Positions 2,932 to 64,000 are shown, counted from the stretch's first letter. The stretch: 64,000 bases of DNA from Spirochaetia bacterium (GCA_963675665.1 OY776510.1:992001-1056000); one strand, 5' to 3'. The notes: generated by a model from the sequence alone, not told the origin. Translations and numbers: made by a program.

Positions 2932-2941
2932 GGAAGGATAA

Positions 2942-6065: not shown

Positions 6066-6085
6066 AGGTCCGGGTTTTCTGATAT

Positions 6086-14585: not shown

Positions 14586-14692
14586 AAGTATCACAGGCTA
14601 TGCTTGTAAAACTTCACACGCCATTACTTGCCTTCTAAGCTGCAACGCAGCTTTCGGCAGGATTTCAGGAGAGTTTTTTACAGGAGGAAAAA

Positions 14693-15682: not shown

Positions 15683-15723
15683 TTTACACAGGAAAATTTC
15701 ATGTTTAAAGAGGAGCTGGAAAA

Positions 15724-46557: not shown

Positions 46558-46789
46558 CTATTATCCTATTATTGCATAAAATTGAACAGGTAAAATGTTC
46601 CAGGTATGCTTATGCGCTTATCAGATTTTTTTTCTAATCAAAAAATCGATGTAAATTGTATAAAATCATCCTGAACTATTACCAGTTAGTGGATTATATC
46701 ACAGGAATTTGAAATAACCAGAAAATATTGGATATTGTTTTCAGCCGCCACGAGACTATACTTCAGACAACATTGTTGCGGAGGAAAAT

Positions 46790-47923
46790 ATGAGTTCAGT
46801 TTATCCGAAAAAAAATAAAGTGAGAGTTGGTGTTGTCGGATTAGGGTTTGGAAAAGAATTCCTGCCAATCTATAAAGAATATGAAAATTGTGAAGTTACA
46901 GCGATATGCAAGAGAAACAAAAATGAGCTTGAAGAATTCGGGCGGCAGTTTGAAATTGATAAATTATATACTTCATACCAGGACATGCTTAATGATGACG
47001 ATATTGACGCTATACATATAGTAACGCCAATTTTCGATCACGCCGGAATGACAATAGATGCATTAAAAGCCGGAAAGCATTGTGCTTCAACAGTTCCAAT
47101 GGCAACTACAATAGATGAACTAAAAGAGATTGTAAGATTAAAAAATGATTCAAATAAAATCTATATGATGATGGAAACCGCTGTATATACACGCGAGTTC
47201 TTTTATGTGAAAAACCTTATTGATACCGGCAGATTAGGAAAAATTCAATTTCTGCGCGGGTCTCATCAACAGGACATGGGGCTGGAAGGGTGGCCGGGCT
47301 ATTGGCTTGGATTACCTCCAATGTGGTATGGAACACATGCAATAGGCCCTTTGCTTTGTATTGCCGGAAGCAGAGCTGAAAGTGTTGTATGTCATGGTTC
47401 CGGAAAACTTAGCCCTGATTTATCTGAAAAATATAATTCTCCGTTTTCAATCGAAACGGCTACTTTTAAACTTGAGCATTCGCCGATTGCTGTAGAAGCA
47501 ACAAGATCTTTATATGAATGTACGAGGCAGTATAGAGAAAGTTTTGATGTATATGGCGAGAAAATGTCCTGCGAATGGGAACAGATAGCCGACGAAGGTT
47601 TTGTTGTTTTTGAAGGCGGTGAAAACGCAAGGCGTATTAATGTGCCGGACACAGACAAGTTATTACCAAAAAGTATTTCCCAGTTCAGTTTAAGAGAGCA
47701 AATCCTTGATGAAGATCATGTGTCGTTTATTCAGGGCGCCGGACATGGAGGATCACACCCGCATCTGGTAAGAGAATTTATCGATTCAATCATGGAAAAC
47801 CGTGAACCAAGAGAGGGTGTTATTACGTCAGCCGACTGGACTGCGGCAGGAATTTGTGCTCATGAATCAGCGATGAAGAACGGAGAGCGAATATATCTTC
47901 CAGATTTTAGAGATATTAAATAA
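46790..47923 (+). CDS. Gfo/Idh/MocA family oxidoreductase
   Basis: VVGLGFG, AGKHCASTVP, PPMWYGTHA, GHGGSHPHLV. Confidence 0.9.
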   Translation: MSSVYPKKNKVRVGVVGLGFGKEFLPIYKEYENCEVTAICKRNKNELEEFGRQFEIDKLYTSYQDMLNDDDIDAIHIVTPIFDHAGMTIDALKAGKHCASTVPMATTIDELKEIVRLKNDSNKIYMMMETAVYTREFFYVKNLIDTGRLGKIQFLRGSHQQDMGLEGWPGYWLGLPPMWYGTHAIGPLLCIAGSRAESVVCHGSGKLSPDLSEKYNSPFSIETATFKLEHSPIAVEATRSLYECTRQYRESFDVYGEKMSCEWEQIADEGFVVFEGGENARRINVPDTDKLLPKSISQFSLREQILDEDHVSFIQGAGHGGSHPHLVREFIDSIMENREPREGVITSADWTAAGICAHESAMKNGERIYLPDFRDIK

Positions 47924-47936
47924 TGGAGGTTGCGGC

Positions 47937-48761
47937 ATGAAATTTGATATAGATCAGTTATGTATAAATACAACTACGTTAGGAGAAGGTTTAATTCAGG
48001 ATAAAATTAAACTGCTGTCGGAGAGCAGGATAAATAAAATTGCTCTTTGGTATGATGATGTTAAAGAACAGAACATAGATGAAATTAAAGAACTATTATC
48101 AGTAAATAATATAAAACCGGTGTTGTTGTCATTTCTAGGGCCTTTTAACCAGGTTACAGCAGAAGAGCGCAAACAACAAAGAGATGAAGACATCAAGAAG
48201 ATTAATATAGCGCAGCAGCTAGGTATATCCACTGTTCTGGCGCTCAGCGGTCCAAGAAAAGCAATATCTGAAAAGGATGCTTTTTATAATCTGAAATCTG
48301 CTTTGTCTGAACTATCAGGATTGTGCGCAGATTCAGATATTCGAATTGCATTTGAACCTATTCACTATATGTACCAGGACGACTGGACCTTTATTTATAC
48401 ACTGGAAGAAACATTGAAACTTGTTTCCGGGCTGGACTGTTCCAATTTGGGAGTGATGCTTGACCTGTACCATCTCTGGATGGAACCGGGACTGAGCGAG
48501 ACAATTAAATCAGCAGCGGGAAAAATATTCGGCGCGCAGTTGTCGGATTGGAAACCAATCACTGAATCGAAATATGATCGGGGACTTCCCGGTGAAGGTT
48601 GCATTCCGTTACCCGAACTGATTAACAGTATCATGGCTGCAGGATGGGAAGAATGGTTTGATATTGAGATATTCTCAAATGATCTATGGAAAAAGAGCCC
48701 AAAAGAAATAGTCAAAGAGTGTCAAAAGTCTTTTGAAAAACTGGCGGAACAGATCAACTAA
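47937..48761 (+). CDS. Sugar phosphate isomerase/epimerase (xylose-isomerase-like TIM barrel)
   Basis: FEPIH, DLYHLW, QLSDW, RGLPGEG, EIFS. Confidence 0.88.
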   Translation: MKFDIDQLCINTTTLGEGLIQDKIKLLSESRINKIALWYDDVKEQNIDEIKELLSVNNIKPVLLSFLGPFNQVTAEERKQQRDEDIKKINIAQQLGISTVLALSGPRKAISEKDAFYNLKSALSELSGLCADSDIRIAFEPIHYMYQDDWTFIYTLEETLKLVSGLDCSNLGVMLDLYHLWMEPGLSETIKSAAGKIFGAQLSDWKPITESKYDRGLPGEGCIPLPELINSIMAAGWEEWFDIEIFSNDLWKKSPKEIVKECQKSFEKLAEQIN

Positions 48762-48814
48762 AGTCAAGATCTTGCGTATGTAAGATTAATATATAATTTT
48801 TTTAGGAGAGTTGT

Positions 48815-49891
48815 ATGAAGAAAATTCTTGTTTTGGCATGTGTGCTGATGGTAGTCTTTTTATCAATCACAGCGGCCGAAGGCTCACAGGAAGGGAATGG
48901 GAAGGATATCTCTAACGGTGGTTATGATATTGCTTTTTCTAATGGTCTGGTTACTCACAGCTGGCGCAGTCAAATGGTTGCCGGAATACAGGAAGCTGTA
49001 GCTTTCTACAAGGGTAAGGGGCTAATAAACGAATTTTATCTGGAACATGCAGGTTTCGACGTCGATTTACAGATTCAGCATATGCGTAATTTTATAATCA
49101 TGGGTGTTGATGCAATAATTGTTGATGCGCTTTCTGTCTCTGCCTTGAACCCTGTTATGGAAGAAGCAATGGAAGAAGGTATCCTTGTTGTAGCTTGCGA
49201 TATGCCGGTTACATCGGAGGCCGTCTGGCAGGTACGACCGGATCATGTTAAATGGATAGAAAGCATGGCCAGATATGTTTTTGAAAACATGAACGGCGAA
49301 GGAAAGCTTGTGTATCTCAGCGGGATTGACGGTGCACCTGTAAGTGATATGCGTGATGAAGGTTTCGATTTAGCTCTTTCAGAATATCCGGATATCCAAC
49401 TACTGGCAAAATCATACGGTAATTGGGATCCTTCACAGGCTATGCAGGCTATGGGTGATATTATTGCGGCATATCCAGATATAAACGGGTTTGTTTCACA
49501 GGATGGTCAGTGTATTTCTGTGGTCAGAGCCTTTGAAGCAGCCGGAAGGCCTCTTCCTGTAATGAATGGAGAATATTCAAAAGATTTCTGTGAATATTGG
49601 GCGGATCATCTCGATGAAGGGTTTACAAGTTATGCTATAGTTCATGGACCAAGCCAGGTTGTAACTGCAGCGCTTGCTGTAACAATGAATCTGCTTCAGG
49701 GAAAAGACTTAAAAACAAAATTACCGGAAGGTGTCAGGCTTGACGGCAAAGCGATAATATTTGACTGGCGGCAGGAAATAACAGACGACAATGTTGAAGA
49801 ACTTCTTTCTGAACATATACGTACACGCGGAATAGATGATTATATTGATGCAGTCTGGAACTACGATGAAGTAAGTGCTTGGTTTAAATAG
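48815..49891 (+). CDS. Sugar ABC transporter substrate-binding protein
   Basis: Signal peptide, SWRSQM, GVDAIIV, GNWD. Confidence 0.88.
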   Translation: MKKILVLACVLMVVFLSITAAEGSQEGNGKDISNGGYDIAFSNGLVTHSWRSQMVAGIQEAVAFYKGKGLINEFYLEHAGFDVDLQIQHMRNFIIMGVDAIIVDALSVSALNPVMEEAMEEGILVVACDMPVTSEAVWQVRPDHVKWIESMARYVFENMNGEGKLVYLSGIDGAPVSDMRDEGFDLALSEYPDIQLLAKSYGNWDPSQAMQAMGDIIAAYPDINGFVSQDGQCISVVRAFEAAGRPLPVMNGEYSKDFCEYWADHLDEGFTSYAIVHGPSQVVTAALAVTMNLLQGKDLKTKLPEGVRLDGKAIIFDWRQEITDDNVEELLSEHIRTRGIDDYIDAVWNYDEVSAWFK

Positions 49892-49910
49892 GGAATAAGT
49901 TTTCAATCAA

Positions 49911-49941
49911 CTGATGTTAGGATAAAACATCCTAACATCAG
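49911..49941. terminator. Intergenic stem-loop after the binding-protein gene
   Basis: CTGATGTTAGGAT-AAAAC-ATCCTAACATCAG. Confidence 0.6.
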
Positions 49942-49974
49942 GTAAATTTTGTTAATTAGGTAGAGCAGGTTGAG

Positions 49975-51498
49975 ATGAAGGATTTTAAAGCATTAGGATT
50001 GCAGAAAAGATTTGACGGTGTTGTAGCACTTAAAACAGTAGATGTCGAATTTGAGGGCCCGAAGATTTGCGGACTGGTAGGTGCAAACGGTTCAGGCAAA
50101 ACAACATTCGCACGATTATGCTGCGGTTTTTATCATGCCGATTGCGGAGAAATATTTGTTAATGGAGAAAGGGTAGATATTAAAAAACCTGAAGATGCTC
50201 TCCGTTACAGAATTGTTTTGGCGCATCAGAATTTAAGTTTAATACCTGATCTTTCAGTTTGGGAAAATATTAAATTAGGCAGAGAAGCAAGAAAAGGTTT
50301 CTGGCTGGATGATAAATTCGATAAGGAGCATGCAAAAGAGATCCTTAATGAATTAGCGCCCGGTGAAATTGCCATAGAGATGAAAATCAGAGATTTGATC
50401 CCTGCTCATAAACAAATCGTTGAAATAGCAAAGGCGCTATCTCAGGATCCTGAGCTTTTGATTCTGGATGAACCGACAGCGGCGCTTGAGATCACACATG
50501 TTAAATTATTATTTAGAAAAATAAAAAAGCTTAAAGAAAATGATACATCAGTGATATTTGTATCCCATAGATTATGGGAAATCACAGAGATTTGTGATGT
50601 TGTATTTGCGTTCAGAAACGGAGAATATGTCGGGTCCCTTGATTTTGCAAAACAGCCCCGTGATGAGGAACTTATAATCCCTTTTGTAACCGGTCAGAAT
50701 GTTAAATATGAAAAGAAGACCAGAAAAAATGATTATTTGAATGAAGGGCCTGATGGTAGAGACTATTTAATACTGGAAAATGTGAATTACGGAAACAAGG
50801 TAAAGAACATCTCCCTGTCTGTGAAGAAAGGCGAGATTATAGGTATCGGAGGATTAAGCGGGCAGGGGCAGGAAGAATTGATAATGTTGCTTGCGGGCGC
50901 TTTAAAGAATACCGGGGGTCTGATAAAAATGGGTGGTGAAGTCCTGAAAATGAATCATCCGGTACATGCTGTAAAGAGAGGAATTTTCCTGGTTCCCGGA
51001 GATAGAAATGTGGATGGTTTATTTAATTCGCATGATGTCTTTACTAACGGGATATTTCCAAGATTTTCATTGAACAAAGAAAAGTTTCTTTTAAATTTCA
51101 GAAAATTATACGACATCATAAATGAAATTATTATTAAAGTAGAATTAAAACCGCAAAACAGTAAAAATGTTGTGAAAAAGCTCAGCGGTGGAAATCAGCA
51201 AAAAATAGTATTCGGCAGATGGCTGCAATTTAAACCGGCAGTGCTGCTTTTAAACGATCCTGCAAAAGGAATAGATATTCAGGCAAAAGATTCGCTTTAT
51301 ACATTGGCAAGAGGTTTGTCGAATGATGGTACTATTGTCGTATTATATTCCAGCAGTAATGAAGAATTAATTGAAAATTGCGATCGCGTGTTTGTTATGT
51401 TTGAAGGGGAGATCGTAGACGAATTTGAAAATCAGAATCTGTCAGATGATAATTTAATAAAATCCTCTTTACGTGTTAAGGGAGATATGAATGAATAA
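49975..51498 (+). CDS. Sugar ABC transporter ATPase
   Basis: GANGSGKTT, LDEPT, LSGGNQQK, NDPAKGID. Confidence 0.93.
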   Translation: MKDFKALGLQKRFDGVVALKTVDVEFEGPKICGLVGANGSGKTTFARLCCGFYHADCGEIFVNGERVDIKKPEDALRYRIVLAHQNLSLIPDLSVWENIKLGREARKGFWLDDKFDKEHAKEILNELAPGEIAIEMKIRDLIPAHKQIVEIAKALSQDPELLILDEPTAALEITHVKLLFRKIKKLKENDTSVIFVSHRLWEITEICDVVFAFRNGEYVGSLDFAKQPRDEELIIPFVTGQNVKYEKKTRKNDYLNEGPDGRDYLILENVNYGNKVKNISLSVKKGEIIGIGGLSGQGQEELIMLLAGALKNTGGLIKMGGEVLKMNHPVHAVKRGIFLVPGDRNVDGLFNSHDVFTNGIFPRFSLNKEKFLLNFRKLYDIINEIIIKVELKPQNSKNVVKKLSGGNQQKIVFGRWLQFKPAVLLLNDPAKGIDIQAKDSLYTLARGLSNDGTIVVLYSSSNEELIENCDRVFVMFEGEIVDEFENQNLSDDNLIKSSLRVKGDMNE

Positions 51499-52477
51499 AA
51501 TAAAAAGAATATCGGCTGATTTGATCAGGCGGCCGTCATTTACCAGTTTCCTCATATTAGTAGTTTTAGTTATTGTAAATGCGATAATTCAGCCCAACTT
51601 TTTTTCGTATCGATCATTAAAATCAAATTTCATGAGCTACACTCCGCTAATATTTGCGGCGGTAGCACAGGGAATGATAATACTCTCCGGTTCCATAGAT
51701 CTGTCGCTTGGAAGTACCATAGCATTGCTCAATTGTCTGACGGCTTCAATGCTGTCCGATTCAAATGTATTCAAGGTAATGATGTTTGGTCTTTTTATAA
51801 CACTTGTCGTCAGCGGTGTTATTAATGGATTATTAATCGGTAAATTAAATCTGTCTCCGTTGATTACTACATTTGCAACCTCGGCAATATATTTAGGAAT
51901 TGCGATGATTATCCTGCCTAAAGCAGGCGGGTATGTCCCGAGGTTTTTATATAATTATTATAAGGGCAGTTTTCTGGGAATTATACCTAATGCCTTTCTA
52001 TTGTTGATTTTAGGTTTGGCTTTATGGTTAATATTCAGCAGAACTTCCGCATATAGATATATCTATGCTGTAGGCAGCAATGAAGACGGCGCTTTTGCCT
52101 CCGGAATTTCAATTTTAAAAACCCGCCTTTTTGCACATCTTTTTTCCGGGTTTTTTATTTTTCTTGCGGGAGTATGTGTTATTATGTTTACTTCAACCGG
52201 AGACTATCGAACGGGAAGCAGCTATACAATGAATTCAATTGCCGCTGTTGTTATCGGAGGAATCTCTCTTTCCGGAGGAAAAGGTTCGATGGCAGGCGCC
52301 GTATGGGGCGCTTTGATATTAGGAGTCCTGAATAATATAATATTCTATTCACATGCCTCTTCATATTTCCAGGTGTTGGCAAAGGGTCTGATTATTGTTG
52401 CTGCATTATGTATCGGAATTATTCCGGCGCTGATTAATAATTCAAGAATGAAAAAAATCGGGGGAAATCTTAAATGA
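51491..52477 (+). CDS. Sugar ABC transporter permease
   Basis: GSIDLSLG, AAVVIGGISLSGG. Confidence 0.92.
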   Translation: MNKIKRISADLIRRPSFTSFLILVVLVIVNAIIQPNFFSYRSLKSNFMSYTPLIFAAVAQGMIILSGSIDLSLGSTIALLNCLTASMLSDSNVFKVMMFGLFITLVVSGVINGLLIGKLNLSPLITTFATSAIYLGIAMIILPKAGGYVPRFLYNYYKGSFLGIIPNAFLLLILGLALWLIFSRTSAYRYIYAVGSNEDGAFASGISILKTRLFAHLFSGFFIFLAGVCVIMFTSTGDYRTGSSYTMNSIAAVVIGGISLSGGKGSMAGAVWGALILGVLNNIIFYSHASSYFQVLAKGLIIVAALCIGIIPALINNSRMKKIGGNLK

Positions 52478-53490
52478 GTGAAATGGCATGTTCGGATAAA
52501 AATGACAGAGGTTCATCAGGAATTTTATTGCGAATAATCAATAACAGGGTTCTTTTTGCATTTATTTTGGTACTGTTTCTTTTTATATTCGGTGAGATAA
52601 TAGTTCCCGGATTTATCAAGTTTAACCATATTATGTCAGTGCTGCAGGCTTCATTCTTTCTGGGAATTATAAGTCTTGGTCAGACAATTGTTGTGATTTC
52701 AGGTGATGATGGTGTAGATCTTTCTGTAGGGGCTGTTTTAACCCTGGGCGTAGTAATTGGAGCTGCAGTTATTAATGGCGATAATGGGCGCGTACTGTAT
52801 GCAATACTTGCTGCTGTCAGTGCAGGTTTTATTGTCGGAATGGTTAACGGTATAGGAGTCTCGATATTGAAAATTTCTCCGTTGATAATGACTATGTCCT
52901 GGGGAATAGTCATTGAAGGAGGGATATTGTTTGCGATAAAAGGACATATGTATGGAACCGGGTCATCTTTCCTGGACATGATTGGAAACGGACATTTTAC
53001 AATTCCTGCATCCTCCGGAGGAAGTTTTACAATTCCATATGTCCTGTTTATTTGGGTTGTTTTAATTTTATTAGCAGTTTTTATTCTGAAAAGAACACGA
53101 GTGGGTTTTATCCTGTATGCTATTGGAGAAAACGATAATGCAGCACGTTTGCAGGGGATAAGAACCGGACTTGTCCGTATTCTGGTATATGGCATTAGCG
53201 GCTTACTGTCATGCCTGACCGGCATACTCCTTTTAGGCTATGTAGGAAGTGCGCATTTGAATTTAGGTAATCGATATATTCTTCCTTCTATTGTTGCAGT
53301 TGTTATTGGGGGTACGAATTTCGGCGGCGGCGCAGGCAGTTATATTGGAACGGTCGGCGGCGCAATATTCTTAACAACATTACAGAGTATATTGGTAACT
53401 CAGGAGATGTCTGAAGGCAGTAAACAGGTAGTTACCGGTTTAGTATTGTTGCTTTTATTAATTTTGTATAACAGAAAAAAGCAAAGATAA
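52474..53490 (+). CDS. Sugar ABC transporter permease
   Basis: GVDLSVG, GENDNAARLQG, AVVIGGT. Confidence 0.92.
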   Translation: MSEMACSDKNDRGSSGILLRIINNRVLFAFILVLFLFIFGEIIVPGFIKFNHIMSVLQASFFLGIISLGQTIVVISGDDGVDLSVGAVLTLGVVIGAAVINGDNGRVLYAILAAVSAGFIVGMVNGIGVSILKISPLIMTMSWGIVIEGGILFAIKGHMYGTGSSFLDMIGNGHFTIPASSGGSFTIPYVLFIWVVLILLAVFILKRTRVGFILYAIGENDNAARLQGIRTGLVRILVYGISGLLSCLTGILLLGYVGSAHLNLGNRYILPSIVAVVIGGTNFGGGAGSYIGTVGGAIFLTTLQSILVTQEMSEGSKQVVTGLVLLLLLILYNRKKQR

Positions 53491-53514
53491 ATATTCATAC
53501 ATAAGGAGATTATA

Positions 53515-54771
53515 ATGGAAGCGGATGTTAAGGAATTATACGATAATAGATTAAAAAGGGTAAAAGATGCTATAGCACTGAAAGAGCCGGATCAGATACC
53601 TATTGTCAGTCCTGTTCAGAAATTTGTTTACGATCATGCCGGAATCACTATGCGTGAGGCTATGTATGAATATGATAAAACCAAATTTGCATGTAAGAAA
53701 TTTGCAGAAGAATTCACGCCTGATATGGATTTTGGGCCCTGGTTTGCACTGCCCGGAAAGGTTTTGGATATTACCAAATTAAACTGGCTTCGCTGGCCGG
53801 GCGGCGGACTGGAAGATGACAATAATATGTATCAATTTATTGAAGATGAATATATGAAAGAAGATGAATACGATGAATTCAATTTTGATATGACTCATTT
53901 TCTTTTAACAAAATGGCTGCCCCGCTCGGTTGGAAATGCAGAAGGATTAAAAAACTTCCCGGTAATAAGAAACGCCATGTGGTTCGGGTGGTTTCCGGCT
54001 TGTCTGCCGTTTGCTTCAGATGAGCTGATCAAGGCTTTTGATACACTGAAAAGAGCAGGCGAAGAATTAGGTAATTATTATAGTTTCGTAGGGCAATACT
54101 TTGACGAAGTAAAGAGTGAATTCGGAATGCCCGCTGCTGCAGGATCCTTTGCCTGGGCGCCCTTTGATTTAATTGGAGATACTCTTCGCGGAACCGAAGG
54201 CGTTCTGATGGATATGTATGATCGACCTGAAAAACTCGAAGAAGCAATAGACAGAATGGTGCCGATCGGTATTGATATGGGTGTTCAGGGATTAAAAAAC
54301 AATCAGAACCCATTCTGCTGGATCTGGCTTCATAAAGGAATGGATTCGTTCATGTCTGATGAATATTTCTCCAGGTTCTACTGGAAAAGCTTCCTCAAGA
54401 TGATAGAGGGAATGGTTGAAGAAGGAGTAATTCCGATGATTTACGGAGAGGGTTCCTTAAATTCCAGACTTAAATATTTTGCCGAATTGCCTAAAGGCAA
54501 GTGTATGCTCCATCTTGAAAATGCCGAAATTGAGGAAATGCGAACCGCCAAAGAAACTCTTAAAGATGTAGTATGTCTTTCTGGAAATGTTCCGAATATT
54601 TTATTCTCGCACGGTTCTGTTGATGAAATAAAAGACTATACAAAAAAACTGATAGATATTTGCGGTAAAGACGGAGGATATATAATGGATACCTCTGCGT
54701 TATTGGATGAGGCAAAGCCCGAGAATGTCAGAGCCTGGTTCGACACGACCCGTGAATACGGCCGTTATTAA
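53515..54771 (+). CDS. Uroporphyrinogen decarboxylase superfamily protein (MtaA/CmuA-like)
   Basis: RVKDAIALKEPDQIP, APFD...LRG, DMYDRPE, SGNVP, GGYI, AKPENV. Confidence 0.85.
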   Translation: MEADVKELYDNRLKRVKDAIALKEPDQIPIVSPVQKFVYDHAGITMREAMYEYDKTKFACKKFAEEFTPDMDFGPWFALPGKVLDITKLNWLRWPGGGLEDDNNMYQFIEDEYMKEDEYDEFNFDMTHFLLTKWLPRSVGNAEGLKNFPVIRNAMWFGWFPACLPFASDELIKAFDTLKRAGEELGNYYSFVGQYFDEVKSEFGMPAAAGSFAWAPFDLIGDTLRGTEGVLMDMYDRPEKLEEAIDRMVPIGIDMGVQGLKNNQNPFCWIWLHKGMDSFMSDEYFSRFYWKSFLKMIEGMVEEGVIPMIYGEGSLNSRLKYFAELPKGKCMLHLENAEIEEMRTAKETLKDVVCLSGNVPNILFSHGSVDEIKDYTKKLIDICGKDGGYIMDTSALLDEAKPENVRAWFDTTREYGRY

Positions 54772-54858: not shown

Positions 54859-55344
54859 TTATCTGGTAATTTTTCGGATCATCTTTCCGACAAGTTTTGA
54901 AGTCTTTTTTGTCACTTCCCTGCCTGCTTCCCGTGCAATCTGGTTTTTGACGGCCTCGAACAGTTTTTCCGGGGAAATATCGCCCTTTATAGCTCCTTTC
55001 AGATCGAACGGTTTTTGTCGGTCCGAATCGGGCGCGGCCCCGGTTTCGGGGATATCGTCAATAGTCCATGCGGTTAGTGTTTTCCATTCACCGGAACCAG
55101 CCAGCCAGGCGGTAAATATCCTTTCCGTTGTTTCGACTGATAACCCCGGGCCGCTGCTGTAATGTCCGGAAGCGTCCTGGTACTCGGCAATAAATCCCGT
55201 TTCGGAATACGCGCACTGGATATAGTCTTCTCCGTTTGAAAGAATCAGAAAATCGTTATCGCTGTTAAGTTTTGAGATGTTGTTTTTTAACTGTTCCGCA
55301 GTTACGTTTTCTGCGCTGTAACCGGAAGCCGTCTCTATATTCAT
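54859..55344 (-). CDS. Hypothetical protein (intact copy; its 3' 397 bp form the right direct repeat)
   Basis: 161-aa ORF with AGGAGG RBS; duplicated at 44012-44408. Confidence 0.8.
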   Translation of the reverse strand: MNIETASGYSAENVTAEQLKNNISKLNSDNDFLILSNGEDYIQCAYSETGFIAEYQDASGHYSSGPGLSVETTERIFTAWLAGSGEWKTLTAWTIDDIPETGAAPDSDRQKPFDLKGAIKGDISPEKLFEAVKNQIAREAGREVTKKTSKLVGKMIRKITR

Positions 55345-55519: not shown

Positions 55520-56641
55520 GTGAAATATCTAATCACAGTCATCTTCCTGCTGTTGCTTGTTGCATATTCGCTGTCCGGAGAACCCCTTACAACCGGGGTG
55601 GTCGAATTTGAAGAAAAAAATGATATCGGGCTGGATAATGCCGGGATAATTATTCCCGAAGTTCTTGTTTCACACTTGAAAAATATCGGCAAATATAAAT
55701 TTACGGAACGTATACTGTTAAAAAAGGTGCTCGAAGAACAGGCCCTGCAGATGAGCGGAATAATTGATGAAGATACAGCGGGAGAAGTGGGAAAACTTTT
55801 CGGTCTTGAGGCGGTAATCACCGGTTCGGCAATGAAGATCGGCGATGAAATCACAATCAGCGGAAGGGTCATAAAAACCGAGACTGCGGAGATTATAGCA
55901 TCCGGAACGATAGAATTCACGGAAATCGACAGGCTGAAAGAAAACCTGGAAAAACTGGCTTATCTTCTGTCGGGTTATTCGGAAGACGATTATCAGAATA
56001 TAAAGGTTTCCTATGAAATCTCCAAGAACAACTACGGTTTAAGGCTCGGTTCGGGATATGCCCGGAATTCAAACGATAACGGGTTTTCGGGCCTGCTTAT
56101 AGGCCTGTTCTACCAGGGAGAGAAAATCAGCGCAGAGTTTAACGGTATTCCTCCTGTTCTTGCCAATGTCGCCCTGATAAACCCAGCGGTCAGTTATTTT
56201 CCGTTTACCCATGTCGGATTCGGAGCAAGCTTCATCTTCTGCAGCGATGAACTGAGCAAGGCTGATAAAAATGTAACAGGCGAGGACCATTGGCACGGGG
56301 AATACATGTCGGTTCTTCTTGGAATTAATCTGAGAGCTTCCGAAGCACTAAGGGGTTCCGTATACATGGGGCCGACAATTGACACGGCCATAATGTATCA
56401 GGATGAACAGAATGAAGAGAGGCATTATTCCGGCGGATTTCAGTTCGGGTTTCCTCCTCCGGCAATAACCGTTGAAGCTGAATACTGGTTTCCCAATAAT
56501 ATGTCCTTACGGTTTTTGTTTATAATGGACGGCGGCGACGGCGTATTTGAAGGTGCGGAGACTGATACCGATGGCATGAGCACAATGTTTATAACTCTGT
56601 CGTTGGGATATAAATTTTCAATAAAATCCAGTGATAAATAG
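55520..56641 (+). CDS. Exported CsgG/HfaB-like domain protein with beta-rich C-terminus
   Basis: ERILLKKVLEEQALQMSG...VGKLFG...ITGS motif; signal peptide; LGYKF near the end. Confidence 0.75.
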   Translation: MKYLITVIFLLLLVAYSLSGEPLTTGVVEFEEKNDIGLDNAGIIIPEVLVSHLKNIGKYKFTERILLKKVLEEQALQMSGIIDEDTAGEVGKLFGLEAVITGSAMKIGDEITISGRVIKTETAEIIASGTIEFTEIDRLKENLEKLAYLLSGYSEDDYQNIKVSYEISKNNYGLRLGSGYARNSNDNGFSGLLIGLFYQGEKISAEFNGIPPVLANVALINPAVSYFPFTHVGFGASFIFCSDELSKADKNVTGEDHWHGEYMSVLLGINLRASEALRGSVYMGPTIDTAIMYQDEQNEERHYSGGFQFGFPPPAITVEAEYWFPNNMSLRFLFIMDGGDGVFEGAETDTDGMSTMFITLSLGYKFSIKSSDK

Positions 56642-56693: not shown

Positions 56694-58517
56694 TTATTTC
56701 AAATTAAATCTAATCGTAAAAATGCAACCGCTTGGTTTTTTGTTTGAATAGTTTATTGTTCCGTTATATTTATTAATAATGTTGTAGACTACCGACAACC
56801 CCAGTCCCATATTGTTGCCGGTGTTTTCCTTTGTTGAAAAGAATGGAGAAAACACCTTCTCTATGTATTTTTTATTTATTCCCGGACCATTGTCGCTTAC
56901 TTTAATTTCTACCTCTCTGGAATTTTCTTTAACATCAAGAGAAGTGACAATTTCAATTTCTCCGCCGTCGTTCATTGCTTCAAAACTGTTTCGGATCAGG
57001 TTTAAAAGAATTTGCTTGAATTCAATCGGGTTTATTATAAGCCAGATATCTTCGCGTGATTTGGTAAAATATATTTTTATGTTCTGGTATTGGGCGTTGA
57101 AATTCAAAAGGTTAATTGTTTCCTGCACCAATGAGTTAATTTCAACCTTATCGGTCCAGTCTACAGGTTTGTTTGCGAAGGTCATCAGGTTGCTGGTAAT
57201 ATGGGCGATTGTATTTATTTCGCTGCACAAATTATCTACAGTTTCTTTAAGTGCTGTGTCATCTAATTTCAGGTTAAGGTATTCCAGGTAATTATAAACT
57301 GCAGTCAAAGGATTATTTATCTCATGAGCAACTCCGGCGGCAAGCAGTCCGGTAGACGCAAGCCGTTCCGACAAAATAACCTTTTCACGAAGTTCTTCTC
57401 TTTGGGTTATATCTTCAAGAATTATAATTGAACCGATAAGAAATGAACCGTCATATATCGGATGTGTTTTTATATTTACTCTAAGCTTATCTGATTTTGT
57501 CGTAAAGTTTAAATTAAAATAATTTTTTTCATTTGATTTTAATAAACCGTCTTTTATTAAAGTAAAGATGTCAGGATTTTCTTCAAATAAGTATTCAATA
57601 TTCTTTCCGAGAAATTTATCTGTTTTTGAAAAAAAGCTTTTTGCCTGGTGATTGATTAGTTTTATATTGTTATGACGATCAAGCGCCAGCAGTATAACCG
57701 GAAGTTTCTCCAGAATGGCTTTGTTGTATTTTAACAGTTGATAAAATTCTTCTTTTTCGGAATCAATCATGTCTTCCGACATTATCTGCGTATAAGCCAG
57801 TTTTATCAGGTTGATTTTGTCAATATTTTTTACTCTGTCGGTAATAATTAGCTCGCCGTTTCTTATTATAGTAACCTTGTCGGCGAATTCATAAATGTCG
57901 TCTATACGATGCGTAACATAAAGAATGGTTGTGCCTTCTTCTCTCAATTTTTTGAGAATGTTGATTATTTTTGTAAAATTTATCTGCGACAGTTTCTGAA
58001 GGGCTTCATCAAGAATAAGCAAAGAAGGTTGAGTATAGATATGCTTAATTATTTCAATCAGAATCCTGTCTGAAAGTTTAAGGTTTCGTATTTTAATATT
58101 AGGATCAATATTGAAACCGTACTGTTGTATTATTTTTCTTGCGTTCTCTGTAATTTTTGTTTTATTTTTTCTGAAATATCCGGTCTTGTTTTTTATATGG
58201 GAAAACAAATTGTCCGCAACTGAAAAATTATCAAGCATAGGAAATTGTTGAGTTATAATTTCTACTCCATTATCCATTGCGGTTTCGCGGCTGAAAAAGG
58301 AATGTCTCTTACCGTTGAAAATTATATCTCCGTTTATCGGTTTTTCTATTCCGCTGATGATATTGCATAAAGATGTTTTGCCTGCTCCGTGTTCGCCGAC
58401 TATTGCAATTATTTCTGATTTATTAACCGAATAGTTGATATTTTTCAGTACCTTAAAACCGTTATATGAAAGCTCTATGTTCTGTAATTCAAGCAGCTTA
58501 ATTTGTTCTGATTTCAT
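56694..58517 (-). CDS. ABC-ATPase-PAS-histidine kinase fusion protein
   Basis: N-terminal GEHGAGKT, LLILDE, YVTHR; PAS region ending EDIT; AGVAHEINNPL, NLIRNS, DNGPGI, PFFSTK, GLGL. Confidence 0.9.
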   Translation of the reverse strand: MKSEQIKLLELQNIELSYNGFKVLKNINYSVNKSEIIAIVGEHGAGKTSLCNIISGIEKPINGDIIFNGKRHSFFSRETAMDNGVEIITQQFPMLDNFSVADNLFSHIKNKTGYFRKNKTKITENARKIIQQYGFNIDPNIKIRNLKLSDRILIEIIKHIYTQPSLLILDEALQKLSQINFTKIINILKKLREEGTTILYVTHRIDDIYEFADKVTIIRNGELIITDRVKNIDKINLIKLAYTQIMSEDMIDSEKEEFYQLLKYNKAILEKLPVILLALDRHNNIKLINHQAKSFFSKTDKFLGKNIEYLFEENPDIFTLIKDGLLKSNEKNYFNLNFTTKSDKLRVNIKTHPIYDGSFLIGSIIILEDITQREELREKVILSERLASTGLLAAGVAHEINNPLTAVYNYLEYLNLKLDDTALKETVDNLCSEINTIAHITSNLMTFANKPVDWTDKVEINSLVQETINLLNFNAQYQNIKIYFTKSREDIWLIINPIEFKQILLNLIRNSFEAMNDGGEIEIVTSLDVKENSREVEIKVSDNGPGINKKYIEKVFSPFFSTKENTGNNMGLGLSVVYNIINKYNGTINYSNKKPSGCIFTIRFNLK

Positions 58518-59802
58518 AATGTTTCATCTTGTTATATAGAGTCTTTCTGCTTATACCGAGTAATTGCGCCGCCGCCGATTTATGATTATTTGTTGTTTTC
58601 AGCGCCTTGAGAATCAATTCTTCTTCATTATTTTTTTTTATGCTTAATGAATAAGGCGTTTCTTTAGTATTAAGATACGGCGGCAGATCGTTAATCCGGA
58701 TCTCGTCATTCCTGGCTAAAACCAGCGCATAATTAATAACATTCTCAAGCTCACGTATATTTCCGGGCCAGGAAAATGTTTTAAAAAGGAGAGTTGTTTC
58801 TTTGCTGAGGTGTTTATTGCTTCCTTTCTTTTTGATGAAAATTGCCGACAGGTGTTCAATATCTTCAATTCTGTCTCTGAGCGGCGGCAGTATTACTGTA
58901 GCCGTGTTCAGCCTGTAGTACAGATCCTTGCGAAAGGTTTTTTCCTTAATCATCTCGGGTAAGTCTTTATTTGTTGCTGCAATAAATCGTACATCAATAT
59001 TCAGATCTTCTTTTCCGCCGAGGCGGCGTATCTCCTTGTTCTGAATGGCTCTTAAAATTTTTGCCTGGAGCGACAGCGGCATGTCGCCAATCTCATCCAG
59101 AAAAAGGGTGGATTTATCTGCACGTTCAAAAACTCCTTTAAATAAATCTCCTGCGCCTGTGTAAGCGCCTTTTTCATGGCCGAACAGTTCATTTTCCAGA
59201 AGAGATTCGTTAAAAGACGAGCAGTTGATTTTAACAGCTTTTTTTCCCCTGTGCTGTGAGTTTTTATGAATGAAATCGGCAAGGACCTCTTTCCCGGTAC
59301 CGCTTTCGCCCTGTATCAGGATTGGAATGTCTGATGTTGCAAGGACTTTTACTTTCTCGATTATTTCCTGCATTTCCGAATTCAGAGAAAAGACGGAATC
59401 GTTGACATTCAGGACATTGCTGTTTTCTTCAGCTGTTTGAAGATGCTTCTCAATTATTGTGAAGAGCTTTTTAAAATTAATAGGTTTCTGTATATAGTTT
59501 TTTGCGCCGAACTGAATTGCCTGTACTGCAGTCTCGATTGTTCCGAAAGCGGTTATCATTATTATGGGAATATCCGTATTATATGAAAGCAGTTTTTTCA
59601 GTATAGACATGCCGTCTTCATCACCAAGCCTGATGTCCAGCAGGGTTAAATCCACCGATGAAGATGAATAATGCCTTGCCGCCTCTTCAAAATTTCCTGC
59701 ATAGAGACAATAAAAACCCTTTTCAAGCAGAAGTGGTGATAAACTTTTATAGATGCTGATATTGTCGTCAACCAGTAAAATTGTTTTTTCAAATGTCACC
59801 AT
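58498..59802 (-). CDS. NtrC-family sigma54 response regulator (REC-AAA+-Fis HTH)
   Basis: [43 protein letters not shown]; start 59802 preferred over 59856. Confidence 0.93.
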   Translation of the reverse strand: MVTFEKTILLVDDNISIYKSLSPLLLEKGFYCLYAGNFEEAARHYSSSSVDLTLLDIRLGDEDGMSILKKLLSYNTDIPIIMITAFGTIETAVQAIQFGAKNYIQKPINFKKLFTIIEKHLQTAEENSNVLNVNDSVFSLNSEMQEIIEKVKVLATSDIPILIQGESGTGKEVLADFIHKNSQHRGKKAVKINCSSFNESLLENELFGHEKGAYTGAGDLFKGVFERADKSTLFLDEIGDMPLSLQAKILRAIQNKEIRRLGGKEDLNIDVRFIAATNKDLPEMIKEKTFRKDLYYRLNTATVILPPLRDRIEDIEHLSAIFIKKKGSNKHLSKETTLLFKTFSWPGNIRELENVINYALVLARNDEIRINDLPPYLNTKETPYSLSIKKNNEEELILKALKTTNNHKSAAAQLLGISRKTLYNKMKHYEIRTN

Positions 59803-59846
59803 ATTACCCAAAATATACAAACATGGGTATACATTACCCATGTTTG
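59794..59846. promoter_or_regulatory. Putative enhancer sites for the NtrC-type regulator
   Basis: Perfect palindrome CAAACATGGGTA-TACAT-TACCCATGTTTG 59818-59846; half-degenerate copy TGTCACCATATTACCCA 59794-59810. Confidence 0.7.
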
Positions 59847-59957
59847 ATTTAATCAAATAAGGAATTGTAAAAGCAAAATTTGTATTTGTCCAGAAAATAA
59901 TGTTTCAGAGGTTATTTCCTGATTCATTTTATCGATTTAAACGCTATTTCGTGTTGT

Positions 59958-59973
59958 TGGCATGGATGATGCT
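59958..59973 (+). promoter_or_regulatory. sigma54 (-24/-12) promoter of the ABC operon
   Basis: TGGCATGGATGATGCT = GG-N10-GC, 30 nt upstream of ATG 60004. Confidence 0.82.
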
Positions 59974-60003
59974 TTATATAAGCAAATCTACAGGAGGTTT
60001 TTT

Positions 60004-60948
60004 ATGAAACTGTTAAAAACTTTACTAATTGTAATGGCCGTCGTTTTGATTGCAGCAGGCTCTTTGTCTGCAGCAGGTCAGCAGGAATCCGACGGAAAGC
60101 TGAAGATCGTGCTTGTTCCCAAATCGGTAGGACATCCGTTCTGGGCTGATCTGGAGAAGGGTATGGAAGATAAAGCGGAAGAAATGGGAGTAACAGCTTT
60201 TTTTCACGGCCCCCAGAGTGCAACCGCAAGCGGCCAGATATCAATAATTGAAGATTATCTTGCAATGGGAGTTGACGGAATTGCTATAGCGGCTAACGAC
60301 CCTGATGCAATCAAGAAGTATGTTGAAATGGGTCTTGAGCAGGGTGTCCAGATGGTTACGTTCGACACTGATGCTCCCGACAGCGGACGTCTTTTTTATG
60401 TCGGAACTGATAATGTAGCCGCAGGCAACCAGGGTGCGGAAGCACTGATAAAGATGATGAACGGAAAAGGCAAGGTTGCAATACTTACTGGCGGACTGAC
60501 AGCGCTTAATCTCAATCAGAGAATTGAAGGTTTCGAGAAAGCTGTTGCTGCGTATCCTGATATAGAAATTGTTGCCAAGGAATCTCATGGTGATTCTCTG
60601 GAACAGGGGATTCCTCTGATGGAAAACCTTTTAACTGAATATCCGGATATCGATGCGTTTTATTGTGTAAGCGGTCCCAATGTAGCAGCGGAAGGGTTGA
60701 AGTCTGCAGGATATGCACCCGGAGAAAAAATTGTCTTCGGCTTCGACATTTTCGATCCTGTTCCTGCTCTTATCAGAGAGGGGTATATACAGGGAACTGT
60801 TGCTCAGCTTCCGTATAAAGAAGGCCAGATAGTTGTAGAAAAACTTGTTGCCAAGATAAACGGTGAAAGTGTAGATGAAATCGTCGGCACAGGCACAAAT
60901 GTAGTTACATCAGAGAATATTGACGCATATCTCTCAGAGGTTCATTAA
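60004..60948 (+). CDS. Sugar ABC transporter substrate-binding protein
   Basis: AGGAGG RBS; leader ending SAAGQQE; HPFW, FDTDAPDS, YVGTDN. Confidence 0.93.
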   Translation: MKLLKTLLIVMAVVLIAAGSLSAAGQQESDGKLKIVLVPKSVGHPFWADLEKGMEDKAEEMGVTAFFHGPQSATASGQISIIEDYLAMGVDGIAIAANDPDAIKKYVEMGLEQGVQMVTFDTDAPDSGRLFYVGTDNVAAGNQGAEALIKMMNGKGKVAILTGGLTALNLNQRIEGFEKAVAAYPDIEIVAKESHGDSLEQGIPLMENLLTEYPDIDAFYCVSGPNVAAEGLKSAGYAPGEKIVFGFDIFDPVPALIREGYIQGTVAQLPYKEGQIVVEKLVAKINGESVDEIVGTGTNVVTSENIDAYLSEVH

Positions 60949-60957
60949 GGATTTTTG

Positions 60958-60993
60958 CCGGGGCATAAGGTAAAACATTGCCCCGGGGTTTTA
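60958..60993 (+). terminator. Stem-loop after the binding-protein gene
   Basis: CCGGGGCA...TGCCCCGG followed by GGTTTTT. Confidence 0.5.
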
Positions 60994-61006
60994 TGAGGTA
61001 AATTGC

Positions 61007-62521
61007 ATGACTGATGTACTGCTTGATTTAAGATCTATTTCAAAAAAATTCCCCGGGGTTAAAGCTCTGGATAATGTTAATATTCAAATTAAAAAAGGTG
61101 AGGTTCATTCGATTCTGGGAGAAAACGGTGCAGGGAAATCTACACTGATGAAAATAATCAGCGGTGCGTTGAATAAAGATGAAGGTGAGATGATTTTTGA
61201 AGGCCGGACCGTCAGTTTCTCGAATACAATGGACTCTCAAAAAGCCGGAATAGCGATGATATATCAGGAGTTTAATCTTGCGCCGCATTTGACGGTTGAA
61301 GACAATGTCTTTATTGCAAACGAACCCTGTTCAAGGTTAAATATTGTTGATAGAAAAACTGTTCGCAAAAGAACATTCGAGCTGCTGGACAGTATAGACT
61401 TCAAACTGGATCCTTCAAAAAAAATAAAGAACCTGAATGTCTGTGAACAGCAGATTACGGAAATAATCAAAGCGCTTCGAAATGAATCAAAGCTAATCAT
61501 TATGGACGAGCCGACGTCTGCGTTAACCGAGAACGAAATCAGAAAATTCTTTAAATGTATTGATAAAATGAGAAGCGAAGGTCTCAGTATCTTATTCATA
61601 TCACATAACCTTGAAGAGGTTTTTGAGATCTCTGATACGATTACTGTTATGCGTGACGGAAAATCGGTCGGAACCTACCCGATTGATGAAATCACACCGA
61701 ATGATGCAGTCAGGCTGATGGTCGGAAGAGAAGTTGAAAATATCTACGACAGGAAGACTGTAGAAATTGGCGAAGAAGTTCTGAGAGTAAAGAATTTATC
61801 CAGTCCCGGCAAAATACACGATGTTTCGTTTACTCTCAGAGAAGGTGAGGTTCTCGGTATCTGCGGTCTGCTCGGCGCCGGGAAGACTGAAATTGTCCGC
61901 GGCATTTTCGGTGCGGATACGAAAGCGACGGGAGAAGTATTCATAAAGGGCAGAAAATTAAAAGTAGGCAATATTAATGATGTTATAGATGCGGGTATCG
62001 GATTAATACCTGAGGACAGAAAAAACCAGGGATTATTTCTGGACAAAAACATAAAAGAAAACCTGAGTGCAGCAAGTATTGAAGAGCTTTCAAAATGTAA
62101 GTTCCTTTCAAAAATGCGGGAGCAGGATCTTGCTTCTCAATATGTGGAGATTCTGCGCATAAAGACCTCCGGTTTGAAGCAGATTGTCAATAATTTGAGT
62201 GGCGGGAACCAGCAGAAAGTTGTAATCGGCAAATGGCTTGCTCTTTCTCCGAAAGTGCTGCTTATGGATGATCCGACAAGGGGTGTTGATATCGGCGCGA
62301 AACAGGCTATCTATAAACTTATCGGAGAGCTTGTGTCCTCCGGTGTCGGGGTGATTTTTATTTCTTCCGAGCTGCCGGAGGTTATAGGGATTTCGGATCG
62401 TCTGCTGGTGATTGCGGATGGAGAATTAAAAGCGGAATTTAGAAGTGATGATGCAACCCAGGAAAAAATCCTGACAGCGGCAACATTAAAAACAAAACTA
62501 AATTCAGAAAAGGCGGTATGA
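61007..62521 (+). CDS. Sugar ABC transporter ATPase (RbsA-like)
   Basis: GENGAGKST, MDEPT, LSGGNQQK, DDPTRGVDIGAK. Confidence 0.95.
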   Translation: MTDVLLDLRSISKKFPGVKALDNVNIQIKKGEVHSILGENGAGKSTLMKIISGALNKDEGEMIFEGRTVSFSNTMDSQKAGIAMIYQEFNLAPHLTVEDNVFIANEPCSRLNIVDRKTVRKRTFELLDSIDFKLDPSKKIKNLNVCEQQITEIIKALRNESKLIIMDEPTSALTENEIRKFFKCIDKMRSEGLSILFISHNLEEVFEISDTITVMRDGKSVGTYPIDEITPNDAVRLMVGREVENIYDRKTVEIGEEVLRVKNLSSPGKIHDVSFTLREGEVLGICGLLGAGKTEIVRGIFGADTKATGEVFIKGRKLKVGNINDVIDAGIGLIPEDRKNQGLFLDKNIKENLSAASIEELSKCKFLSKMREQDLASQYVEILRIKTSGLKQIVNNLSGGNQQKVVIGKWLALSPKVLLMDDPTRGVDIGAKQAIYKLIGELVSSGVGVIFISSELPEVIGISDRLLVIADGELKAEFRSDDATQEKILTAATLKTKLNSEKAV

Positions 62522-63537
62522 ATATTATGAAATACACTGACACTGTAAACAAGGAAAAGGATGACATCGAAGAAAAACAGATTAATAAGTGTACGAATAT
62601 TCTGAAAAAAATATTTAACTTTCAGGAATCGGCGATTTTATTTGTATTTATTATTTTCTGTATTCTGCTGTCTATCGTTGCTCCGAGGTTTTTGCTTCCG
62701 CAAAACATATCAAATGTAATCAGACAGTTTTCAATGGTTGCTATAGTAGCAGTCGGAATGAGCTTTGTTATAATTTCCGGAGGAATTGATCTTTCAGTCG
62801 GCGGTATCGTCGCCTTTGTCGGCGTTTCAGTTGCCTGGATGATAGTAAATATGGGGATGCCTATCTGGCTGGCCATATTCATCGGCCTGATTCTCGGATC
62901 ATTTCTTGGTCTTCTTAATGCAATACTGATTGTTCGGGTCGGACTGCCTCCGTTCATTGCGACCCTTGGAACAATGCAGATTTCCAGAGGGCTGGTTCTG
63001 GCTTTAACCAGGGGGTACCCCATCAGACCGTTTCCCGAAGTCTTTCTGGCAATAGGTCACGGCAAAATAGGCGTTATCCCGGTTCCTATTGTAATCATGA
63101 TCATCGTAATTATTGTTGCTCATATATTTCTGAGTAAAACAACAACCGGCAGGTATATCTACTATACGGGCAGCAACCTTGATGCCGCGGTTCTGTCCGG
63201 AATAAAAACCAAACGGATTTTGTCGTCGGTCTATATAATTACAGGGTTTCTTTGCGCAGTAGCGGCGGTTTTGTTGACAGCCAGGCTGTCTTCGGCCCAG
63301 AGCAATATGGCTGAAGGCTGGGAGCTTGATGCTATTGCCGCTGTCGTAATAGGCGGGGCAAGCCTGTCGGGCGGTGAAGGATCAATTATCGGCACTCTCA
63401 TAGGTGCGGCAATTATGGGAGTCATCAGAAACGCTCTGGTACTTCTTCACGTTTCGGTTTACTGGCAGACCGTTGTTATCGGCTGTGTAATTATTGCGGC
63501 GGTTACCATAGATAAAGTCAGGCATAAGGATAATTAA
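62518..63537 (+). CDS. Sugar ABC transporter permease (RbsC-like)
   Basis: GGIDLSVG, PPFIATLG, ELDAIAAVVIGGASLSGG. Confidence 0.95.
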   Translation: MNIMKYTDTVNKEKDDIEEKQINKCTNILKKIFNFQESAILFVFIIFCILLSIVAPRFLLPQNISNVIRQFSMVAIVAVGMSFVIISGGIDLSVGGIVAFVGVSVAWMIVNMGMPIWLAIFIGLILGSFLGLLNAILIVRVGLPPFIATLGTMQISRGLVLALTRGYPIRPFPEVFLAIGHGKIGVIPVPIVIMIIVIIVAHIFLSKTTTGRYIYYTGSNLDAAVLSGIKTKRILSSVYIITGFLCAVAAVLLTARLSSAQSNMAEGWELDAIAAVVIGGASLSGGEGSIIGTLIGAAIMGVIRNALVLLHVSVYWQTVVIGCVIIAAVTIDKVRHKDN

Positions 63538-63552
63538 AAGAAGGGGAATGAT

Positions 63553-64000
63553 ATGAGATTTAAATCACAGGCAGCATTACTTACAGGTGCAGCGAGAGGA
63601 ATAGGAAAGGCAGTGGCAAAGAAGCTGGCCTCGGAAGGTTGTTATGTTGAAATTACCGATATAGACGAAAATGCAATAGATGAAGCTGTCAGGGAAATAA
63701 ATAAAGAATTCCCGGGACTGGCGGGCGGATCAATTATGGATGTAACTGATAGTTCATCGATAAACCGGGTTGTAAAAAAACTGTTAAATGAAAAAAGCAG
63801 GATTGATATCCTCGTTAATAATGCGGGAGCAAACGGAAAGGGCTGGGTTGTGGATTTTGAGGAGAAATTATGGCAGACGATTATTCAAACTAATCTTACG
63901 GGGACATTTCTCTGTTCAAAAGCGGTTTTGCCGGGAATGATAAAAAAAGGAAAAGGCAGGATTATTAATATTGCTTCAATTGCCGGAAAACAGGGCGAAT
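63553..64000 (+). CDS. SDR oxidoreductase (polyol/sugar dehydrogenase-like), partial
   Basis: Hand translation MRFKSQAALLTGAARGIG...DILVNNAG...TNLTG...IINIASIAGKQGE; runs off the window edge. Confidence 0.88.
   Translation, partial: MRFKSQAALLTGAARGIGKAVAKKLASEGCYVEITDIDENAIDEAVREINKEFPGLAGGSIMDVTDSSSINRVVKKLLNEKSRIDILVNNAGANGKGWVVDFEEKLWQTIIQTNLTGTFLCSKAVLPGMIKKGKGRIINIASIAGKQGE

Follow-up and report, generated by a model that had tools for sequence, protein, structure and literature searches.

A soluble histidine kinase carrying a transporter-type ABC domain in a putative sigma-54 circuit for a CUT2 importer of a spirochaete

Only a few cases, all indirect, are known of how ATP-binding cassette (ABC) importers report their cargo, e.g., PhoU bridging PstB and PhoR or MalK holding MalT. 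Here we describe a locus from a Spirochaetia bacterium (GCA_963675665.1, OY776510.1:992001-1056000; this 64-kb stretch is called the window and all coordinates are positions within it, unless a locus label is given), in which a soluble sensor histidine kinase bears an ABC nucleotide-binding domain (NBD) and is encoded, together with an NtrC-type response regulator, next to a CUT2-type sugar or polyol importer. Because of the family membership of the components and their conserved layout, we consider it highly probable that the locus forms a circuit leading from the kinase via the regulator and an enhancer to a sigma-54 promoter and the importer operon.

Two described systems in which a transporter informs a kinase are PstSCAB-PhoU-PhoR (PMC9239213, PMC13577022) and the flux-sensing BceAB-BceS (PMC4513084, PMC10314905). 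The former resembles our proposal in having a kinase that does not bind the substrate and a signal that passes from the NBD side of an ABC importer to a cytoplasmic PAS domain. However, the link is non-covalent there (from PstB through PhoU to the PAS domain of PhoR) and PhoR is membrane-anchored, whereas here the NBD is covalently joined to the PAS-kinase and the regulator is of the sigma-54 type. BceAB-BceRS has in common with our locus an ABC transporter which is both required for and induced by its own two-component system. Unlike the kinase considered here, BceS resides in the membrane and contacts the permease via transmembrane helices; the transporter, BceAB, is a resistance pump of the exporter type, and no NBD fusion is involved.

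AtoS and AtoC are the closest NCBIfam models for the PAS-kinase core and the regulator, respectively. Both AtoS and ZraS (of the AtoS-AtoC and ZraS-ZraR systems) are membrane proteins without an NBD, and 74 NBD-less relatives described below lack the CUT2 linkage, in contrast to the present kinase. The rhizobial DctB-DctD/dctA system shares the divergent layout, the enhancer sites between the genes, the sigma-54 promoter of the transporter and the NtrC-family regulator, and there too the transporter was proposed to act as a co-sensor. The differences are that DctB sits in the membrane and has a periplasmic sensor domain, that DctA belongs to the secondary carriers, and that the present locus combines a soluble kinase with an ABC importer, the fused NBD being the proposed link between them. 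MalK, which binds MalT, and MetN also combine an NBD with a C-terminal regulatory extension coupling transport state to regulation, but these extensions are TOBE- or ACT-like and belong to a working ATPase; here a full PAS-histidine kinase is attached to an extra NBD lacking the signature motif. Transporter-coupled two-component sensing is known, and what is new is the fusion of an NBD to the kinase, present in none of the closest systems compared. A literature search that did not extend to subscription journals and supplements returned no prior description of such a fusion, and passages of PMC2853384 and PMC1183210 did not contain one either.

The genes are arranged in two divergent operons separated by a 201-bp gap, the regulator and kinase genes on the minus strand and the importer genes on the plus strand (domain assignments from Pfam and NCBIfam, for the ATPase also from a motif table):

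58498-59802, minus strand: NtrC/AtoC-type response regulator, 434 aa (receiver domain REC, sigma-54 AAA+ domain with GAYTGA, HTH_8)
56694-58517, minus strand: soluble sensor histidine kinase, 607 aa (ABC NBD, PAS, HisKA, HATPase_c)
60004-60948, plus strand: periplasmic sugar/polyol-binding protein (substrate-binding protein, SBP; Peripla_BP_4) with a signal peptide
61007-62521, plus strand: CUT2 ATPase, 504 aa, two fused NBDs (two ABC_tran domains)
62518-63537, plus strand: CUT2 permease (BPD_transp_2, RbsC-like)
63553-64000, plus strand: short-chain dehydrogenase (SDR), incomplete at the window end

An initial annotation made from the DNA alone had reported a 20-bp overlap of the regulator and kinase genes and an SBP-ATPase-permease-SDR gene order behind the promoter. 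The overlap is indeed there (regulator stop at 58498, kinase start at 58517), and so are all four genes. ATG at 59802 is the likely start of the regulator gene, for which the open reading frame (ORF) listing offers TTG at 59856. The domain set of the NtrC family is complete (Response_reg, 5e-23; Sigma54_activat, 1.4e-65; HTH_8, 5e-13), and the translation contains LFLDEIG as well as GAYTGA, the sigma-54 contact loop. The usual form of this contact motif is GAFTGA, and the Y-for-F variant is judged to be compatible with its function. The Walker A and B motifs of the family are present in the regulator as well. The best NCBIfam match of the regulator is AtoC (4.4e-111, below the equivalog cut-off).

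The importer has the composition typical of the CUT2 (ribose/xylose) type: an SBP of the Peripla_BP_4/1 kind, a single polypeptide with two NBDs and a BPD_transp_2 permease. Since all its NCBIfam matches are below the equivalog cut-offs, no substrate is assigned. The true start of the SBP gene is ATG 60004, preceded by a ribosome-binding site (AGGAGG, 59992-59997), while the ORF listing gives 59962. The SDR is probably the first catabolic enzyme. Within the ATPase, NBD1 is of the catalytic type and NBD2 combines LSGGNQQK with a degenerate Walker A. The operon therefore has a full double-NBD ATPase of its own, as does every related locus, and the kinase NBD is extra, as the initial annotation maintained.

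Three parts can be distinguished in the kinase:

57750-58517, minus strand: residues 1-256, ABC NBD of the CUT2 NBD1 type (NCBIfam, motif table, tree)
57393-57749, minus strand: residues 257-375, end of a low-confidence linker (244-258) followed by PAS (Pfam PAS/PAS_9, AlphaFold2)
56694-57392, minus strand: residues 376-607, dimerisation and histidine phosphotransfer (DHp) domain with H398 in AGVAHEINNPL and catalytic ATP-binding domain, AtoS/ZraS-like

The Pfam matches cover residues 24-173 (ABC_tran; the whole NBD spans about 5-256), 266-372 (PAS), 391-448 (HisKA, 5.2e-10) and 497-606 (HATPase_c, 2.5e-22), so both the His box and the GHKL domain of a histidine kinase are present. Residues 5-256 align with the first half of the CUT2 ATPases AraG, YtfR, MglA, XylG and RbsA, and residues 260-606 with AtoS, the best NCBIfam match (8.9e-74, below the equivalog cut-off). 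No transmembrane or periplasmic domain family was matched in the Pfam and NCBIfam scans. In the AlphaFold2 monomer model the individual domains are good, with a mean predicted local distance difference test score (pLDDT) of 78.6. Foldseek matched the two halves of this model separately, the one to NBD structures (LptB, template modelling score relative to the target, TMt, up to 0.89) and the other to PAS/LOV-kinases; none of the solved structures spans both halves, the best score relative to the query (TMq) being 0.36. The NBD matches include MetN and MalK, i.e., ABC ATPases with C-terminal regulatory extensions. A sequence search of PDB with the kinase found neither a fusion of an NBD with a PAS-kinase nor a CUT2 transporter among the matches.

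The kinase belongs to a large family. All 120 best protein matches have ABC_tran, HisKA and HATPase_c, are 562-634 aa long and, leaving aside the query among them, share 41-60% identity with the kinase. Their sources, named in a few cases, include Spirochaetaceae, KSB3 (Moduliflexus, Vecturithrix), Desulfomarina and Spartobacteria, and they are annotated as “ATP-binding cassette domain-containing protein”, “histidine kinase” or “PAS domain S-box-containing protein”. In an alignment of 42 kinase sequences K47, Q90, D170 and H398 are invariant, and E171 and H203 are conserved in at least 90%. A tblastn search against plasmids gave 397 matching records, none of which spans at least 80% of the kinase.

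To compare gene neighbourhoods we used 80 loci kept from a genome contig scan, mostly via the generic kinase motif AGVAHEIN. Six of them (L001, L002, L003, L004, L008 and L075) encode a full NBD-kinase, L075 in two copies; with the window, these seven kinase copies make eight systems. The remaining 74 loci, with related kinases lacking the NBD, served as controls. A sigma-54 response regulator is encoded directly upstream of the kinase on the same strand in all eight systems, and a neighbouring CUT2 transporter, which has a permease and a double-NBD ATPase of its own, is equally constant. The binding protein accompanies six of the seven related copies (the L008 contig ends before it could appear). 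In the window and in L001-L004 the two operons diverge. Among the controls, one locus has a CUT2-type permease and one a full CUT2 ATPase, but none has both. Sigma-54 regulators are common in the controls too (41/74) and therefore belong to the wider kinase clade, whereas the CUT2 link, found in 8/8 systems against 0/74 controls with both parts, is specific to the NBD-bearing kinases. The initial annotation had made its proposal depend on linkage of kinase homologues to CUT2 transporters, and this is the linkage observed. On the same control counts, chance juxtaposition of the kinase and the transporter was rejected.

The neighbouring catabolic genes vary from locus to locus (SDR with RpiB and Dak; zinc-dependent alcohol dehydrogenase with FGGY; GH3; GH43/32), so the substrates evidently differ. 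The SBP is the most divergent component of the eight systems (21.6% mean identity, compared with 35.5% for the kinase NBD), which fits with specificity residing in this protein.

The kinase NBD keeps Walker A (GEHGAGKT), the Q-loop (Q90), Walker B (LLILDE) and the H-loop (H203), but has LSDR in place of the canonical LSGGQ signature and DEAL in place of DEPT in the D-loop. According to the motif table, the first four motifs are kept in all eight kinases, except for His to Ser in the H-loop of L004; none of them has the canonical signature, which is replaced by LSDR, LSQQ or some further variant, and the D-loop is DEAL or DEIS. The eight cognate ATPases have an NBD1 with canonical Walker A, Q-loop, Walker B and H-loop, yet a degenerate signature. 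Their NBD2, in turn, carries the canonical signature LSGGNQQK, yet Walker A has Arg instead of Lys (6/8), the Q-loop lacks Gln (Glu in 7/8) and the H-loop has Ser. With these two patterns, a cognate ATPase would have a catalytic ATP site and a degenerate one.

The motif pattern of the kinase NBD is that of NBD1. In the tree, the eight kinase NBDs group together in a single clade (100/100) that lies within the NBD1 sequences and apart from NBD2 (100/100), and do not pair with NBD1 of their own neighbouring ATPases, which points to a single old fusion. With the NBD1 pattern in both subunits, a kinase homodimer would lack the canonical signature at both of its ATP sites. Such a dimer probably binds ATP but, lacking LSGGQ, is predicted to be a poor ATPase, and a role as a nucleotide-dependent switch suits it better than that of a motor.

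The gap between the two operons contains the following elements:

59958-59973, plus strand: sigma-54-type promoter TGGCATGGATGATGCT (-24 GG at 59959-59960, -12 GC at 59971-59972)
59818-59846, no strand assigned: inverted repeat CAAACATGGGTA-TACAT-TACCCATGTTTG (arms 59818-59829 and 59835-59846), candidate enhancer (upstream activating sequence)
59803-59810, no strand assigned: ATTACCCA, direct repeat of 59833-59840, a lone half-site abutting the regulator ATG
59864-59892, minus strand: sigma-70-like promoter of the regulator-kinase operon (TGGACA, 17-nt spacer, TACAAT; 10/12)

The sigma-54 promoter consensus is TGGCAC-N5-TTGCW. The GG-N10-GC element named in the initial annotation fits it in 9 of the 11 specified positions and is the sole match to TGGCAYN5WTGCW on both strands of the window, where 0.26 would be expected. 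It ends 30 nt ahead of the SBP ATG, and the transcription start is predicted near 59984 on the plus strand. A sigma-54-type element precedes the adjacent transporter operon in all eight systems, with 9-11 of 11 positions matched and 23-141 nt to the first gene. No such site was seen upstream of the second transporter of L003 (11780-11960), in L002 at the junction of the URO-D-like and ATPase genes within the operon (7100-7300), upstream of the L008 regulator or between the two L075 regulators. A consensus scan for sigma-70-like promoters found none on the plus strand of the gap. The minus-strand one, with a predicted transcription start near 59857, is to be read with the scan as a whole, which gave 15 such matches in 3.7 kb against 12.6 expected, i.e., no enrichment over shuffles.

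The inverted repeat was initially described as a perfect 29-bp palindrome with a second site over the regulator start. Its existence and its distance from the promoter stand, 113-141 bp upstream of the -24 GG, but its perfection is confined to the 12-nt arms, the 5-nt TACAT between them not being self-complementary. By our arithmetic, about 2.5e-4 repeats with 12-nt arms are expected by chance in a 200-bp gap. NtrC-family sites typically lie at such a distance from sigma-54 promoters. The supposed second site turned out to be the 8-nt ATTACCCA, which alone is not beyond chance; its minus-strand reading, TGGGTAAT, may represent no more than the Shine-Dalgarno-like region.

Upstream of the sigma-54-type promoter, seven of the eight operons have inverted repeats whose arms measure 7 nt or more. 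In four divergent loci (window, L001, L002, L004) their distance from the regulator start is 15-24 nt; their sequences differ, and so do their spacers (5, 0, 4 and 14 nt). In the window the repeat is 16-44 bp upstream of the regulator ATG, between the sigma-70-like promoter (59892-59864) and the start codon. Since this is the leader/promoter region of the regulator gene itself, the regulator probably modulates its own operon as well, as suggested only by the position of the repeat.

Putting these observations together, we propose the following scheme. The kinase very probably phosphorylates the NtrC-type regulator, which would then bind the inverted repeat and, from about 130 bp upstream, activate the sigma-54 promoter of the SBP-ATPase-permease-SDR operon. 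With less certainty, the two NBDs of a kinase dimer could dock on the permease dimer at its cytoplasmic coupling helices, replacing the transport ATPase or alternating with it. A docked, substrate-loaded SBP would then alter the spacing or the ATP occupancy of the kinase NBDs, and this change would pass through the PAS domain and the DHp helices to shift the kinase/phosphatase balance. In this way a soluble kinase that does not itself bind the sugar would use the importer as its transmembrane receptor. We favour docking because the added domain is of the very NBD type used by the transporter, because the CUT2 linkage is specific, and because substrates differ between loci while specificity sits in the highly divergent SBP. 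Still, the receptor role of the importer through docking is put forward tentatively, with rather less than even confidence. The explanation as a whole, i.e., the sigma-54 circuit of a CUT2 importer combined with sensing by a docked NBD and self-modulation by the regulator, we regard as possible, at somewhat less than an even chance.

Several observations weigh against sensing by docking. The complete double-NBD ATPase of every locus should fill both coupling helices of the permease, so access of the kinase would depend on competition with this ATPase or on a separate permease pool. The low pLDDT of the NBD-PAS linker (<50 at 244-258) and a predicted template modelling score (pTM) of 0.43 make the interdomain arrangement of the AlphaFold2 model unreliable, and a rigid signalling helix is not evidenced by it. 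PAS is the most variable kinase domain (27.7% mean identity over the eight systems, other kinase parts 35-37%), as ligand-specific cytoplasmic sensing predicts. The synteny sample is small (six loci, five of them spirochaetal). Finally, a self-inducing receptor made from a strictly activator-dependent sigma-54 promoter faces a start-up problem if the SBP and the permease are produced only there. Negative logic of the DctA-DctB kind would solve this problem.

In the main rival account the same sigma-54 circuit responds to a cytoplasmic signal, with PAS binding the imported sugar or polyol or its first metabolite, while the NBD makes no contact with the permease and serves for ATP-dependent dimerisation or for sensing of the energy status. 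A sugar- or metabolite-sensing PAS domain is in itself equally plausible. The variability of PAS looks as if it tracked different ligands, the linker preceding it is flexible in the model, a full ATPase is already available in every locus, and the conserved catalytic residues of the NBD are compatible with nucleotide sensing. Such a scheme explains neither the choice of a CUT2 NBD1, of all domains, for the addition nor the linkage of NBD-kinases, as opposed to the NBD-less controls, to CUT2 transporters; moreover, induction by an already imported substrate meets the same start-up problem. Taken as a complete account, with the NBD never reaching the permease, we consider it unlikely, if a serious contender.

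Docking itself could also serve a different end, the NBD-kinase mainly throttling uptake by competing with the ATPase for the permease or by pairing with the ATPase, while the kinase output reports occupancy in the style of MalK-MalT or MetN trans-inhibition. A permease carrying an NBD1-type domain with P-, Q- and H-loops and no signature would be transport-dead, and the fold matches to MetN and MalK agree with such a role. The conserved pairing of the kinase with a response regulator and a sigma-54 promoter points, however, to gene control, and makes throttling as the main function improbable. The DNA side of the circuit has an alternative too, in which the repeat at 59818-59846 is an RNA hairpin (an attenuator or a stabiliser) in the leader of the regulator-kinase mRNA. 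It lies downstream of the sigma-70-like promoter, can form a 12-bp stem with a 5-nt loop and the tail TATATTTTGG, and was flagged as terminator-like on the minus strand by the same scan, again without enrichment over shuffles. Yet the T-run is poor, the start codon follows within 16 nt, and the distance to the sigma-54 promoter is the one usual for NtrC-family sites. As the co-located repeats of related loci include a spacer-less palindrome, which cannot loop out as an RNA hairpin, a protein-binding enhancer is favoured over an attenuator, and we give the hairpin as a substitute for the enhancer only a slim chance. The two roles of the repeat are not mutually exclusive.

Returning to importer-linked sensing, if the proposal is true, an ABC importer becomes the transmembrane receptor of a kinase without a membrane segment, the fusion of a kinase to the NBD type of the transporter is the most direct coupling yet seen, and external sugars and polyols are sensed in a widespread and unstudied way. 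We speculate, with even more reserve than in the case of docking, that the NBD-kinase is an alternative, signalling-only “ATPase” subunit sharing the SBP and permease with the transport ATPase, that ABC NBDs can be input domains of histidine kinases, and that sugar and polyol sensing of this kind is widespread in spirochaetes, KSB3, Desulfobacterota and Verrucomicrobia. The system would be tractable, with its soluble kinase, defined promoter and defined candidate enhancer. As the family is large, extends across phyla and is annotated generically, the mechanism of one member would annotate many loci. It could also yield a modular sugar/polyol biosensor with specificity set by the binding protein.

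Some of the related loci have features of their own. In L075 (1-15500) two paralogous regulator/NBD-kinase pairs lie back to back, each with its own SBP-ATPase-permease operon and sigma-54 promoter, forming a natural pair for studying insulation between paralogous systems. A second CUT2 transporter and a GH3 glycosidase are located directly downstream of the NBD-kinase in L003 (11898-17119) and may be co-transcribed with it; the permease of the divergent transporter of this locus is split in two ORFs (5576-6373 and 6370-6891) by a frameshift or a misassembly. The L008 NBD-kinase (2646-4453) is likewise split in two overlapping ORFs (2646-4142 and 4091-4453), for which either a frameshift or, in this thinly covered contig of a metagenome-assembled genome, a sequencing error would account. 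The L001 operon continues with an SDR, an RpiB/LacAB isomerase, Dak1 and Dak2, a gene set which presumably resembles that of erythritol/threitol catabolism; the locus has 60% G+C, which looks inconsistent with the Treponema denticola label of the record. In L004, a gene close to the NBD-kinase locus (13696-16335) codes for a chemoreceptor (MCPsignal) whose C-terminal domain is a sugar-binding Peripla_BP_4. Two pairs of close kinase and permease homologues, P0003 with P0123 (both 12149) and P0027 with P0132 (both 16941), have equal longest-contig sizes, which hints at further syntenic instances.

Just beyond the 3' end of the kinase gene, the window contains a second CUT2 sugar cluster (44608-54771) on the plus strand, in which a window scan found no sigma-54 motif. 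It codes for a GFO/IDH/MocA oxidoreductase, a xylose-isomerase-like TIM barrel protein, an SBP, a double-NBD ATPase, two permeases and a URO-D-like protein, and is preceded by a divergent gene (44608-46557, minus strand) for a 649-aa regulator with an AraC-type helix-turn-helix and PAS. Between the two sugar clusters there are a 161-aa ORF (54859-55344) without a Pfam family and a gene for a 373-aa protein (55520-56641) with a weak partial match to CsgG (1.9e-8, profile positions 42-97 only). The URO-D-like protein (uroporphyrinogen decarboxylase family) is a recurrent neighbour: it closes the second cluster of the window (53515-54771) and is encoded by the first gene of the sigma-54-driven transporter operon of L002 (7218-8474).

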